From: Bacteroidia bacterium
GTDB lineage: Bacteria; Bacteroidota; Bacteroidia; UBA8524
DNA: 64,000 nucleotides
NCBI GenBank assembly: GCA_037968475.1
Contig: JBBKVO010000018.1
Span: forward strand, 108,603 to 172,602
Direction of reading: 5' to 3'
Positions within the stretch are counted from its first letter, which is position 1. Each line of letters opens with the position of its first letter. Made by a program: the position numbers and the translations under genes. The notes under the pieces were generated by a model, which was not told where the DNA came from, did not search any database, and saw only the letters and a list, made by a program, of their open reading frames with translations. Positions 3,169-10,804 of the stretch are shown piece after piece.

Positions 3169-4200
3169 TTAAATTGTATTGTACCAAGCCAGTGCTTCTT
3201 TAATTTCTTGCGGGGTACAATAATTATCAATAGTTGCGCTGCCAATTTCTTCTAACAAAGTAAAATTAATGCCTTGCACGGTATTTTTCTTATCGGCACC
3301 CATTAGCTTTATTAATTCATCCCAATTAGCATCATCAAGTTTTGGTAGGGTGTACAGGTTTTGTATACACTTAACTATGGCTTGCAATTCGCCTTCATCC
3401 AGTCCATTTTTTTGTGATAGATAGCTTTCGCACAATATACCCAAGGCTACGGCTTCGCCATGCAATAGTGATGCTTCGCTGTTTTCTAAAAACCACGACT
3501 CAACTGCATGGCCTATGGTATGCCCAAAGTTTAACAGTTTGCGCAAACCGTTTTCGTGTAGATCTTCTTCAACAATTTCGTTTTTTATAGCTACAGATGT
3601 AGTTATTTGATTTTTGAACCTACGAGGGTTAAACTCTTGCAACTCCACCCAATGGTCAGCATCGTATATCAACGCGTGTTTTAGCATTTCGGCATAACCT
3701 GCTTTGGTTTCCCTATCGGGTAAGGTTTTTAAAAACGGCGGATGAATAAAAACACCCAAAGGTTCTTTAAACAAACCGATATAATTTTTTAGCCCTTTAT
3801 AATCAACCCCCAGTTTGCCACCTATGGCGGCATCAACCATTGCTAAAAGACTTGTAGGTACATTAATAAAATAGATCCCGCGTTGAAAAACAGCAGCACT
3901 AAAACCACCCATATCGCCTACCACGCCGCCACCTACATTTATTAGCAGCGATTTACGGTTGGCACCCCTTTCTATCAGTATATCAAAAACACTTTCGCAC
4001 GTGCTTAGGCTTTTGTGTTCTTCGCCTGCATCAATGGTAATGGCTTCAAAATCAAAACCTTGTAGCAAGGGTACACAATGCTGCGCTGTGTTTTCATCAG
4101 ACAAAACAAATATGCCTTCAAAATCGCGCGAGTTGACAAAGTTGGCCAAATACTCTAAAGCATTATCGCTTATTACTATATGTTCGTTTATTAGCTGCAT
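3169..4200 (-). CDS. aroB: 3-dehydroquinate synthase
   Basis: Full-length 343 aa with the GGGVVGDMGGF and NVPTSLLAMVDAAIGGKLGV motifs characteristic of DHQ synthase. Confidence 0.9.
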   Translation of the reverse strand: MQLINEHIVISDNALEYLANFVNSRDFEGIFVLSDENTAQHCVPLLQGFDFEAITIDAGEEHKSLSTCESVFDILIERGANRKSLLINVGGGVVGDMGGFSAAVFQRGIYFINVPTSLLAMVDAAIGGKLGVDYKGLKNYIGLFKEPLGVFIHPPFLKTLPDRETKAGYAEMLKHALIYDADHWVELQEFNPRRFKNQITTSVAIKNEIVEEDLHENGLRKLLNFGHTIGHAVESWFLENSEASLLHGEAVALGILCESYLSQKNGLDEGELQAIVKCIQNLYTLPKLDDANWDELIKLMGADKKNTVQGINFTLLEEIGSATIDNYCTPQEIKEALAWYNTI

Positions 4201-5408: not shown

Positions 5409-5576
5409 TTCATTGGTTTAAAAACCGGTGCTACTCATGCCTATCGGAAATCCCGATAGGGTATCAGTGGTAGGTTTTAACCCATCAAGGGATTATCAAA
5501 AATCTTGTGCTCAGGCCTTAAACAGTTTTTGAACAATTAATGTTAGATGTAAAACAGTTATTTTTTTATGTATCAA

Positions 5577-6077
5577 CTACTCTTGCCTTGTCCAAACAAT
5601 CTCACCGCTTAGGCATTCTTCTTTTTTTAGTGAGGTCTCTATTTGAGTACGTAAGCTTTCCGTTGATTTTACGGCTTCAGTACCTCCATCAAGCAAACCA
5701 ACATCGTAGGTATACATTTTTCCATTATTGTACTCGTAGCAATACAAATAGTAGCTATTATCGTCTTTTGGAAGAGAGTATATAAACGTTTTGCCACTAA
5801 TTTTAGTTACCCACCCTATAAATTCATTGGTTTCAAGGCTATACATTGTGCCCGTATTTTCTACTTTAATAGAATAGCTATTGGCAGAAGCTTTTGTTAT
5901 AGTTACTTTACCAAATTCAGGGTCTTCCTCGTTGTTCGTCCATGTACCCAAAAGGTTAGGGTCGATTTTTTCAGTGCCCGTGTTTCCGGCAGGGTAGTCT
6001 AAACCAATTGGGCAACCGCTAAGTAATACCATTACCGGCAGCAGCATTATTATTACAAATTTTGTAGTTTTCATCAT
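5577..6077 (-). CDS. Hypothetical lipoprotein
   Basis: Signal peptide with a lipobox-like LLSGC motif. No recognisable domain. Confidence 0.5.
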   Translation of the reverse strand: MMKTTKFVIIMLLPVMVLLSGCPIGLDYPAGNTGTEKIDPNLLGTWTNNEEDPEFGKVTITKASANSYSIKVENTGTMYSLETNEFIGWVTKISGKTFIYSLPKDDNSYYLYCYEYNNGKMYTYDVGLLDGGTEAVKSTESLRTQIETSLKKEECLSGEIVWTRQE

Positions 6078-7731: not shown

Positions 7732-7996
7732 TCTACAATTATACTAAGTTTGGGCTGAATTGCCTTACAGTATGGCGTTACTAATTTTTTGTTTGCCAGT
7801 ATGAGCGTCCGCTTGTGCTAAACAATAGGGTAGCATCCGCTACCTGCTTAAATGTTTCATCCACAATGCCTGCCGCACTCCTTCAACTTCATCCAGAAAA
7901 AACCACTTGTTATCCCGTCATGCCGACGCAGGTCGGCATCTCGTTGCCCAATAAAGTTTACACAGATTGAGATCCTGAAACAAGTTCAGGATGACA

Positions 7997-8030
7997 GCCA
8001 CACAAGGTGACAATGGTTAGTTTAGGCATT
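7997..8030. repeat. Short dispersed repeat CAGGATGACAG.CACAAGG.ACAATGGTTAG (copy 1)
   Basis: Near-identical to 39999-40032. A partial match (ATGACAGCCGCGCA) lies at 9425-9438. Confidence 0.5.
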
Positions 8031-8052
8031 GCTTAAAACTGTAAACCAAAAA

Positions 8053-8105
8053 CTTAAAACTGTTTACAAATCCTCAGCACGCTCGACCAACTTAAGGTCG
8101 GGTTG
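8053..8105 (-). pseudogene. Displaced, diverged copy of the rmuC 3' end (last ~11 codons plus stop)
   Basis: The minus-strand translation of 8062-8097 reads ...PDLKLVERAEDL*, the same as the true RmuC C-terminus (DPKLVERAEDL*) at 9464-9499. The DNA is about 85% identical to 9453-9510. Confidence 0.65.
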
Positions 8106-8185
8106 TTTTAAATTTTATAATTTAAGTTATCATTATTTTGTAGAGATAATATAAATTATTAAATTGCTTCAAACTATCGTAAATT

Positions 8186-8956
8186 ATGTGGAAAGGATTT
8201 AATTTAAAATTGGAAGGCTTTGAAAATTTAGATCAGTACGAAACTATTGGCAAAAGTCTCTATACCGCAAATAAAAATCAAGCTATGAAAGGGCTTGAGG
8301 AATATACTACTAAAAATGGTCGAATTAATGGTACCGAAATGAAAAAAGATTGGTTTCCTGAAATTATGGCCGATATTTTTATTTCGCATTCACATAGTGA
8401 TGAAAAAATTGCTGTTGCTTTGTCTGGGTATCTTCATGATAATTTTGGTTTAAATACATTTATCGACTCTTGTGTATGGGGGTACGCAAACGACCTACTG
8501 TTTGAAATTGATAAAAAAAACTGTTCTTCTGGTGATAATCTTTTCAGCTATGAGGCCAGAAATTATTCAACTAGTAATGTTCACATGATGTTAGCTACAG
8601 CAATATCTAAAATGATGGATAAAACAGAGTGTGTATTCTTTTTGAATACACAAAACTCAATTACCACTAACGTAGCTCTGATCTCTCAAACTGAATCACC
8701 ATGGATTTATTTCGAATTAGCGATGACGAAAATCCTTAGAGCTAATATTCCAAATAGATTAAAAGAGGAAACTAGAACCATGTCTGAATCTCTTAATAAG
8801 AAATCTACATTTGTTTATGAGTTAGATTTGAGTGACTTGATAGAAATTAGTTTTACTCACTTATTAAGATGGGAAAGGGAAAATAAGCTTACAGCTGCAT
8901 CAGCACTCGATAAACTATATGAAATAACGAATAGTAATGGCATTATCAGAGGATAA
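8186..8956 (+). CDS. TIR-domain protein (candidate NADase-type immune TIR)
   Basis: Residues 63-98 are DIFISHSHSDEKIAVALSGYLHDNFGLNTFIDS, the betaA-alphaA-betaB TIR signature. Residues 139-178 are AISKMMDKTECVFFLNTQNSITT...SPWIYFEL, matching the vvvlS.ny..S.WC..EL block with a candidate catalytic Glu at residue 177. The gene is AT-rich. Confidence 0.6.
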   Translation: MWKGFNLKLEGFENLDQYETIGKSLYTANKNQAMKGLEEYTTKNGRINGTEMKKDWFPEIMADIFISHSHSDEKIAVALSGYLHDNFGLNTFIDSCVWGYANDLLFEIDKKNCSSGDNLFSYEARNYSTSNVHMMLATAISKMMDKTECVFFLNTQNSITTNVALISQTESPWIYFELAMTKILRANIPNRLKEETRTMSESLNKKSTFVYELDLSDLIEISFTHLLRWERENKLTAASALDKLYEITNSNGIIRG

Positions 8957-9359
8957 AATCAAACATTTAGAGTTTATACAGAACATAATTACTCGTATGA
9001 ACTCTAATTCATTTCAGATTAAAGGCTTGGCAGTCACCCTAACAACTGGTTTATTGGCAGTTTATGGTGCAAATCCAAAAGTGATTTTTATATTCATAGG
9101 GATACTACCCAATATACTTTTTTGGCTCTTGGATACTTATTACCTACAAATGGAGTGGAAATTTAGAGGGCTGTATAATGATATTATAAACCCAGATAAT
9201 ACTATACCTTCATTTAGTATGGATATTATCAAATACAAAGGAAAAGAGTACTCGTTTGTTAATGTACTATGCTCTAAATCAATACTTCCTTTGTACCTAT
9301 CAATTATTGTTATTTTACTTTTGCTTGGTATTGGAATTCAATATAATTCCTGTGCTTAA
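8937..9359 (+). CDS. Small membrane protein with three predicted TM helices; candidate effector partner of the TIR protein
   Basis: 140 aa. It overlaps the upstream gene by 20 nt, which suggests translational coupling. Hydrophobic segments lie at about residues 28-47, 50-70 and 116-136. Confidence 0.5.
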   Translation: MALSEDKIKHLEFIQNIITRMNSNSFQIKGLAVTLTTGLLAVYGANPKVIFIFIGILPNILFWLLDTYYLQMEWKFRGLYNDIINPDNTIPSFSMDIIKYKGKEYSFVNVLCSKSILPLYLSIIVILLLLGIGIQYNSCA

Positions 9360-9463
9360 AAGATACTTGAATTATACTTTCTGATAAAAATCCCCTACCC
9401 GCCCATGTTTCGACTTCGCTCAACATGACAGCCGCGCAGCCATTAGTTATTACTTAAAACTGT

Positions 9464-10804
9464 TTACAAATCTTCTGCACGCTCTACCAACTTAGGGTCT
9501 AGCTGTTTAGATACTTTTGCTCCCAACTCGCGCAAAGTTTCGGCACGGCGTATAAGGTTTCCGCGCCCTTCGTAAAGCTTTTTCATACTGTCTTCATAAG
9601 CTCCCTGTGCCGATTTCATTTTCTTGCCCAAATCAATAAGGTCTTCGGTAAAGTTTACAAATTTATCGTACAAATCGCCGCCTTGCCTTGCTATCTCCAG
9701 CACGTTACGGTTTTGGTATTCTTGCTTCCAAATATTGGCTATGGTGCGCAGGGTGGCCAGCAGGGTACTACTGGTTACTATTACTATATTTTGATCGAAG
9801 GCATCATTAAATATTTCCGAATCGCTTTGCACTGCAACCGCAAAGGCCGATTCTATGGGGATAAACAACAATACAAAATCAGGCGTATCAATCTCGTACA
9901 ATTGGTGGTAGCGTTTTTCGCCCAGTTGTTTTATATGCTCGCGAACCGATTTTATATGCGCCTTTAGCCACGTTTGTTGCTCTTCTTGCGTATTGGCCGA
10001 TGAGTACCTTTCATACGCCGTTAGCGATACTTTTGAATCGACAATTATATTTTTATTGTCGGGCAGTTTTATAATAACGTCGGGCTGTTGGCGGCGACCT
10101 TCATCATTCACAAAACTTTCTTGCACACTATACTCTTGCCCCTTGGTAAGTCCGCTTTTCTCCAATACTTTCTCTAAAATCAGCTCACCCCAATTACCCT
10201 GTGTTTTGCTTTCGCCTTTCAGGGCTTTGGTTAGTCGGTTAGCATCCTCACGCATCCCTTGGTTTAGTTCGGTAAGTCCACGTATTTGCTCGGCTAGTCG
10301 GCTTTGCTCCTTGCTATTTTCAAGGTGGGTATCTTCCACCTTTTTCTTAAACTCATCCATCTTCTCCTTCAACGGGTTTAGCACTATATCTAAACTATCA
10401 CGGTTTTGACGAACAAATTTTTCGCTTTTCTCTTCAAATATTCTATTGGCAAGGTTTTCAAACTCTTTAGCTAAACGCTGCTGTAAGGCTTCAACCTCTT
10501 GTTTCTGTTCAGTAAGTTTTTGTTCAAGGTTTTGCAACTGGTTAGCCAGTCGGCTATTATCAGCCGTTAGGCTTAGGCTTTGTTTCTGGGCATCTTCAAA
10601 CTGGGTTTTAGCATCAAATAAAGTAGCCTGTAATGAGTTGGCTTTCTCTTCCAATCCTGCCTTCTCGGCAGTAATACGCGATATTTCTTGCCCACGCATA
10701 TCAAAATCGGTACGGGGCACCATTTGGGCTATTTTGTTTTTACCCAAAAGCCAGCCAATAAAAGCTCCTGCTACTAATCCCACCACTACAAACAGTATTT
10801 CCAT
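9464..10804 (-). CDS. rmuC: DNA recombination protein RmuC
   Basis: Coiled-coil N-terminal half and a conserved RmuC C-terminal nuclease-like domain (YHQLYEIDTPDFVLLFIPIESAF...). The ORF track extends to 10903. The start at MEILFVVVGLV (10804) is more likely, giving an N-terminal TM helix. Confidence 0.9.
   Translation of the reverse strand: MEILFVVVGLVAGAFIGWLLGKNKIAQMVPRTDFDMRGQEISRITAEKAGLEEKANSLQATLFDAKTQFEDAQKQSLSLTADNSRLANQLQNLEQKLTEQKQEVEALQQRLAKEFENLANRIFEEKSEKFVRQNRDSLDIVLNPLKEKMDEFKKKVEDTHLENSKEQSRLAEQIRGLTELNQGMREDANRLTKALKGESKTQGNWGELILEKVLEKSGLTKGQEYSVQESFVNDEGRRQQPDVIIKLPDNKNIIVDSKVSLTAYERYSSANTQEEQQTWLKAHIKSVREHIKQLGEKRYHQLYEIDTPDFVLLFIPIESAFAVAVQSDSEIFNDAFDQNIVIVTSSTLLATLRTIANIWKQEYQNRNVLEIARQGGDLYDKFVNFTEDLIDLGKKMKSAQGAYEDSMKKLYEGRGNLIRRAETLRELGAKVSKQLDPKLVERAEDL

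Follow-up and report, generated by a model that had tools for sequence, protein, structure and literature searches.

A probable type V Thoeris system, thsB followed by thsF, in a Bacteroidia genome

Type V Thoeris and the gene pair at 8186-9359

In December 2025, Yirmiya et al. (Sorek laboratory) catalogued 29 putative Thoeris types and validated seven new ones (bioRxiv 10.64898/2025.12.03.692087; hereafter Yirmiya et al., 2025). Type V in this catalogue consists of ThsB together with ThsF, a protein with three transmembrane (TM) helices annotated as DUF2270 (PF10028), which AlphaFold3 models as a homo-oligomeric ring whose inter-protomer pockets are positively charged. The type V system of Bacillus thuringiensis (Bt) DAR 81934 protects Bacillus subtilis from phage; its TIR protein alone produces 3' cyclic ADP-ribose (3'cADPR), and does so only after infection, while cells that carry the system are poisoned by added 3'cADPR but not by 2'cADPR or cADPR, and the Tad1 sponge lowers its defence (Yirmiya et al., 2025). 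The TIR proteins of Bt DAR 81934 and Bacillus cereus VD021 were both reported as 3'cADPR producers, and type V was described as "especially enriched in Bacteroidota" (Yirmiya et al., 2025). Here we describe two plus-strand genes at 8186-9359 of a 64,000-nucleotide stretch from a Bacteroidia bacterium, referred to as the window throughout (GenBank assembly GCA_037968475.1, contig JBBKVO010000018.1, positions 108,603 to 172,602 of the forward strand), which, as judged from their sequences, very probably constitute a type V Thoeris anti-phage system, thsB being followed by thsF.

The assignment rests above all on homology to the validated Bt system. The sequence of the Bt DAR 81934 TIR protein was taken from Table S1 of the preprint and the Bt locus was then retrieved; Bt ThsF is the product of the 141-aa gene directly 3' of Bt thsB (L081 4773-5195), deposited as WP_074790415.1 ('hypothetical protein') and carrying the IMG number 2624526260, which is the identifier of the TIR gene plus one. 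The window ThsF shares 36% identity with this protein over 130 aa (E 1e-28), and the window ThsB is 43% identical to Bt ThsB (E 6e-69) and 46% identical to the TIR protein of B. cereus VD021 from the same cluster (E 9e-74). In PADLOC-DB, the window ThsB matches the ThsB model PDLC00430 over its full length (E 3e-73), and ThsF matches all four PDC-M50A models, the best being PDLC04686 (E 3.3e-42; residues 5-130 of the protein against positions 3-128 of the 134-position profile). PDC-M50 (M50A + M50B) is listed in PADLOC-DB v2 as a computational candidate, as far as we could find without a mechanism, under a name that our literature search found in no paper. The window TIR matches the ThsB models and not PDC-M50B, and no gene lies between thsF and rmuC. 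The window pair is a new example of an already described system, and equals PDC-M50 with a different TIR subtype. The preliminary description of this DNA, made from the sequence, had reasoned that sensing and activation would follow a new logic here; this has to be withdrawn, as a TIR protein paired with a small three-TM effector devoid of SLOG, Macro or SIR2 domains is type V Thoeris, and has been listed as the candidate PDC-M50 since 2023.

The upstream gene, thsB (8186-8956, plus strand, with a TAA stop at 8954-8956), encodes a protein of 256 aa that by homology would act as a TIR-domain sensor and signal synthase. The protein has the TIR fold, and its E177 (codon 8714-8716), which lies in the motif WIYFEL, is invariant in 40 homologues and aligns with the glutamate of the motif WIYHEI in Bt ThsB; from established knowledge of TIR enzymes, we take this residue to be the catalytic glutamate. 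A promoter scan found no plus-strand sigma-70 site upstream of thsB, a result that is uninformative if the promoters of the host are of the Bacteroidota type.

The downstream gene, thsF (8937-9359, plus strand, ATG start and TAA stop), encodes 140 aa and is a real gene rather than a chance open reading frame (ORF). As described before, it begins 20 nt before the stop of the TIR gene: the overlap between the 3' end of thsB and the 5' end of thsF (8937-8956, plus strand) is exactly 20 nt, as seen directly in the sequence, and makes for a tight operon with likely translational coupling. In the 12 loci carrying the ThsB subtype of the window, the spacing between the two genes ranges from -17 to +74 nt, with -4 being the commonest value. 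A word-indexed search returned 1074 ThsF homologues, all of about 135-150 aa and none with a Pfam domain, and an exhaustive profile search extended the family to 5013 representatives (50% identity) at E<=1e-3, or 3362 at E<=1e-10. The ATG at 8937 is supported, since the homologues share this start position.

Hydropathy analysis (Kyte-Doolittle, 19-residue window) revealed a charged, amphipathic N-terminus followed by three hydrophobic segments at residues ~28-46 (weak, 1.1-1.2), 49-68 (up to 2.1) and 115-135 (up to 2.8). The AlphaFold2 (AF2) monomer model computed with 44 homologues is confident (pLDDT 91.9, pTM 0.81), and its helices at residues 5-45, 50-84 and 117-139 form a long helical hairpin, then a loop, then the last helix, so that the N-terminal helix is continuous with TM1 and TM2 extends into a cytoplasmic helix. 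TM1 (residues ~30-46) and TM2 (~49-65), encoded at 9024-9131, make up the hairpin with an outer loop of 3-4 residues, and TM3 (residues ~115-135) is encoded at 9279-9341. The three TM helices proposed in the preliminary description are therefore borne out by both approaches. The charge distribution suggests an N-in/C-out topology, in which the short uncharged C-terminal tail would lie outside the cell. Hydropathy, AF2 and Pfam analyses agree on three membrane-spanning helices with no further domain; ThsF contains no Macro domain, as three helices and one loop account for all 140 aa. The protein matches no Pfam family at E<=10 and no NCBIfam family, and searches of the Protein Data Bank sequences with the ThsF profile or with ThsB retrieved no relevant relative of solved structure.

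TIR linkage and the conserved motifs of ThsF

The association of ThsF with TIR proteins was assessed in 80 of the 381 genomic loci encoding ThsF relatives, a sample that spans Bacteroidota, Spirochaetota, Bacillota, Chloroflexota, Gammaproteobacteria, Elusimicrobiota, Planctomycetota and others; the genes immediately upstream and downstream of each ThsF relative were clustered by single linkage. In 72 of the 80 loci, one or two TIR genes directly adjoin the ThsF homologue on the same strand. An adjacent co-oriented gene belongs to the cluster holding the window TIR in 67 loci, and these neighbours were confirmed as ThsB_TIR or TIR_2 proteins with Pfam and PADLOC; the TIR gene is located downstream only in 31, on both sides in 23 and upstream only in 13 of them, the common downstream type being a protein of 165 aa of the PDC-M50B kind. 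Two further loci carry short TIR ORFs adjacent to the ThsF homologue, and three further ones encode a TIR-STAND-TPR protein of about 1050 aa downstream. Among the eight loci without an adjacent TIR gene, two end at a contig edge and six show no TIR in the fetched flank. The ThsF homologues in these six loci (L003, L032, L035, L037, L051 and L057) have among their neighbours a cation-efflux protein, a VIT1-family protein, a pyruvate kinase and a DNA methylase; they may be orphans or effectors that act in trans, or may stem from artefacts of the assembly. The closest loci are mostly labelled as Bacteroidota, which fits the enrichment of type V in this phylum.

In addition, four proteins (P0145, P0169, P0187 and P0268) are TIR-ThsF fusions, in which an N-terminal part with one or two TIR_2 domains is joined to a C-terminal ThsF module. 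Such fusions constitute Rosetta-stone evidence that implies a functional link, and imply that sensor and effector are able to act in cis at the membrane. The claim that the small membrane protein is an effector partnered with the TIR gene, for which a co-occurrence analysis of the homologues of both genes had been suggested as a check, is thus upheld by the linkage in 72 of 80 loci, by the fusions, and by the homologous Bacillus pairs that confer defence (Yirmiya et al., 2025).

The TIR partners are diverse. A subfamily of 190 aa with the motif 'YDIFLSHS', which includes the TIR protein of Bacillus sp. 1NLA3E, is encoded upstream of ThsF in many other loci. Besides, large multidomain TIR proteins are encoded after the ThsF homologue in some loci (L026 6432-9575, L033 6485-9718, L020 6419-8071 and L029 6428-9829), with the architectures TIR-STAND(NACHT/NB-ARC)-TPR (~1050 aa), TIR-TPR and LRR-Roc-COR-TIR; ThsF may therefore also receive signals from TIR sensors of the NLR-like kind.

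Conservation within ThsF, evaluated with 90 representatives at 50% identity, is highest in two motifs that flank the TM1-TM2 hairpin on its cytoplasmic side. Juxtamembrane motif 1 (residues 10-29, HLEFIQ..I.R.N.NSFQIK; 8964-9023, plus strand) belongs to the cytoplasmic N-terminal helix, and its S25 and K29 are invariant, with R20 and F26 nearly so. Juxtamembrane motif 2 (residues 66-80, D.YYL..E[RK]KFR..Y; 9132-9176, plus strand) comprises the conserved set D66, Y69, L70, E73, R/K74, R77 and Y80, of which D66 is invariant and E73 is kept in 89 of the 90 representatives; in the window, this motif includes an unusual tryptophan, W74, just past TM2 and within the conserved E-R-K-F-R stretch. Because positively charged pockets between protomers were reported for ThsF (Yirmiya et al., 2025), we consider R20, S25, F26 and K29 together with D66, Y69, E73, R77 and Y80 as candidate residues of the signal pocket. 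The conservation of R20, K29 and R77 at the membrane-cytosol boundary is compatible with the model of a ring with basic pockets. As ThsF has no recognisable ligand-binding domain, the sensor for the signal must come from the juxtamembrane helices and oligomer interfaces.

We propose that ThsB would detect the phage and use NAD+ to make a signal of the cyclic ADP-ribose type (most likely 3'cADPR), and that ThsF would reside in the inner membrane, with its N-terminus inside, as a ring-shaped homo-oligomer. The signal would bind cytoplasmic, membrane-proximal pockets built by the two motifs flanking the TM1-TM2 hairpin, and its binding would open or disrupt the membrane, leading to a growth stop or cell death before the release of phage progeny. 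For the window system, we infer which signal is used, that ThsF assembles into a ring and where its pocket lies; defence, 3'cADPR production and 3'cADPR-triggered toxicity would be expected by analogy with the homologues in the preprint.

Cassette borders and possible sensor exchange

The two genes are located on a cassette of 1.4 kb with a GC content of 31%, compared with about 40% in the flanks. It is bordered by a 57-nt direct repeat, the two copies of which (8052-8108 and 9452-9508, both read on the minus strand) are 88% identical, and weaker collinear repeats widen the left side of the duplication to ~7986-8108 and its right side to ~9420-9508. The live rmuC gene, identified from its RmuC Pfam annotation, has its 3' end in the right copy, which encodes KQLDPKLVERAEDL and a stop codon (9464-9466). 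The left copy still encodes KQPDLKLVERAEDL followed by a stop and is therefore a relic rmuC end. It looks like the cassette was inserted at the 3' end of rmuC; no integrase is present within the 1.4 kb. The idea that rmuC serves as a general integration site was rejected, since RmuC or RfbA was found nearby in none of the 80 related loci. Short GC-rich hairpins occur in the intergenic regions to the left and right of the cassette (7920-7939, 7972-7992 and 9404-9427), with the arms ATGCCGAC..GTCGGCAT, ATCCTGAAC..GTTCAGGAT and CATGTT..AACATG, two hairpins being followed by ATGACAGCC. These hairpins look like members of a dispersed repeat family, and recombination may have used them as its substrate.

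The closest ThsF homologue (P0002, locus L084) is 83% identical at the amino acid level and is found in an unrelated genomic context. The homology at the DNA level, 86% identity between window 8964-9440 and L084 5031-5515, covers thsF and about 80 nt downstream and begins 8 nt past the thsB stop, whereas the ThsB proteins encoded by the window (8186-8953) and by L084 (4220-5020) are only 45% identical. This disparity indicates that the effector was kept, while the sensor was exchanged or strongly diverged. The L084 cassette sits between an AlbA_2/Schlafen-like gene and PNK/RNA-ligase genes, and is flanked by a 96-nt direct repeat (3965-4060 and 5509-5604, 93% identical) of a hairpin-type repeat element. 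A 36-nt fragment resembling the rmuC 3' end lies upstream of thsB in this locus (4120-4155), with no rmuC nearby.

A more far-reaching idea, which we consider unlikely, is that the window ThsF represents a natural ligand-pocket variant (W74) on a self-contained 1.4-kb defence cassette that travels from genome to genome via its flanking direct repeats, and in which recombination swaps thsB exactly at the thsB/thsF boundary and leaves the effector in place. If this were true, ThsF would be a universal, domain-less receiver for many TIR sensors, including the NLR-like TIR-STAND-TPR proteins, and the cassette would stand for a mode of combining new sensors with a constant effector that has not been described before.

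Alternative readings and comparison with known systems

Several points weigh against the assignment of the window pair to a functional type V system. The reference for type V is an unreviewed preprint, in which 3'cADPR did not trigger the other defensive Bacillus type V system, that of Bacillus sp. 1NLA3E, and in which a type V system from Vibrio cholerae gave no defence in Escherichia coli (Yirmiya et al., 2025). The cassette is situated outside any defence island, between the housekeeping genes rfbA-like and rmuC, and no other TIR or ThsF gene was found within the 64-kb window. Position 74 of ThsF, in a motif expected to bind the signal, is occupied by tryptophan (TGG, 9156-9158) in place of the arginine or lysine present in 86 of the 90 relatives. 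Furthermore, the PF10028 (DUF2270) label could not be reproduced: neither the window ThsF (E<=10) nor the validated Bt ThsF matches this family, Bt ThsF gives only a weak 8xMP match in Pfam (E 0.012), and DUF2270 matches are sub-threshold in 13 of the 90 relatives (best E 0.0023). Other weak Pfam matches among these relatives are to DUF3278 (26/90), Ac76 (12/90) and 8xMP ('octameric membrane protein'; 6/90, best E 7.6e-5), and a literature search on '8xMP' gave irrelevant matches only. The DUF2270 label does not discriminate members of the family and is unusable as a criterion with the Pfam copy used. The ThsF family is effectively without a working Pfam model, so annotation pipelines keep calling these genes hypothetical.

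The alternative that survives best retains the architecture of ThsB plus ThsF and supposes a signal other than 3'cADPR, namely another ADP-ribose (ADPR) derivative, or a second infection-derived cue, with W74 possibly marking an altered pocket. From the 1NLA3E system, Yirmiya et al. (2025) drew the conclusion that a different molecule, or an additional signal, may serve some effectors. The partners of ThsF homologues include at least five ThsB subfamilies and also TIR-STAND-TPR proteins, so the signals may differ, and W74 does occupy an R/K position. However, the window ThsB falls, at 43-46% identity, into the subfamily of the two TIR proteins tested as 3'cADPR producers, and it is for the Bt ThsF, paired with that subfamily, that a response to 3'cADPR was shown. 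We regard a different signal as rather unlikely, and 3'cADPR as the most likely messenger.

Less probable still is a relic cassette, in decay or already inactive, which was acquired horizontally, had its effector crippled by an R74W exchange, and no longer defends its host. W74 occurs in only one of the 90 representatives, the closest ThsF homologue carrying arginine at this position (CGA versus TGG in the window), and the cassette is isolated, with no neighbouring defence genes. In contrast, both ORFs are intact, of full length and with correct starts, the other invariant residues are kept (S25, K29 and D66 in ThsF; E177 in ThsB), and an identical copy is present in an assembly from an independent read set.

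Finally, that the 140-aa protein has nothing to do with TIR signalling, and is a SLATT- or CBASS-type effector, a holin or a toxin of a toxin-antitoxin pair overlapping the TIR gene by chance, is highly improbable given that no SLATT, holin or toxin family in Pfam is matched at E<=10, that no cyclase is present in the cassette, that TIR genes adjoin its homologues in 72 of 80 loci and are fused to them in others, and that its homologue is a validated Thoeris effector. The likeness to SLATT proteins and holins considered in the preliminary description likewise found no support, with no SLATT family among the 25 most often matched of the 77 Pfam families obtained from the 90 relatives. Its other proposal, a toxin-like partner regulated by the TIR protein, is at odds with the Bacillus homologue, where the TIR protein alone makes 3'cADPR upon infection and added 3'cADPR triggers toxicity (Yirmiya et al., 2025).

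Reasoning from the raw sequence thus arrived at a real system, in which a TIR enzyme signals to a minimal membrane effector without a classical ligand-binding domain. Since that system is by now in the literature, the locus itself contributes little that is new. It is of use as a Bacteroidota representative of type V, in which a conserved basic residue of the presumed pocket is naturally replaced and the borders of a mobile two-gene cassette are clear; it also provides evidence of a sensor that evolves, or is exchanged, at a much higher rate than its effector.

Among the known systems, the type V system of Bt DAR 81934 is the closest. Both have the order thsB-thsF, with proteins of 252 and 141 aa in Bt and of 256 and 140 aa in the window, both effectors have three TM helices and lack SLOG, Macro or SIR2 domains, and the homology is full-length for ThsB (43%) and ThsF (36%). 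The two systems differ in host phylum (Bacteroidota for the window, Bacillota for Bt), in the arrangement of the genes (a 20-nt overlap versus a 13-nt gap), in W74 of the window ThsF instead of the usual R/K, and in their surroundings, the window pair being placed at the 3' end of rmuC and the Bt pair in a defence neighbourhood that includes an OLD-family ATPase and a UvrD helicase. As for PDC-M50, the window protein matches M50A and most related loci have an M50B-type TIR downstream, but the only TIR of the window is the upstream 256-aa subtype, recognised as ThsB (PDLC00430) by PADLOC, with no downstream M50B.

In type II Thoeris, ThsC is likewise a membrane-spanning effector encoded beside ThsB and is thought to kill by membrane damage. 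ThsC, however, combines TM helices with a Macro domain and senses His-ADPR, whereas ThsF has neither a Macro nor any recognisable ligand-binding domain, and the signals differ. Type VII ThsH belongs to the SLATT family, for which the window protein gives no Pfam match, and in CBASS and Pycsar the partner is a CD-NTase or a pyrimidine cyclase, unlike the ThsB TIR protein that accompanies ThsF. What ThsF shares with ThsH, which responds to cADPR, and with the TM effectors of CBASS and Pycsar is that all are small membrane effectors acting on a nucleotide-derived messenger, with oligomerisation proposed for killing.
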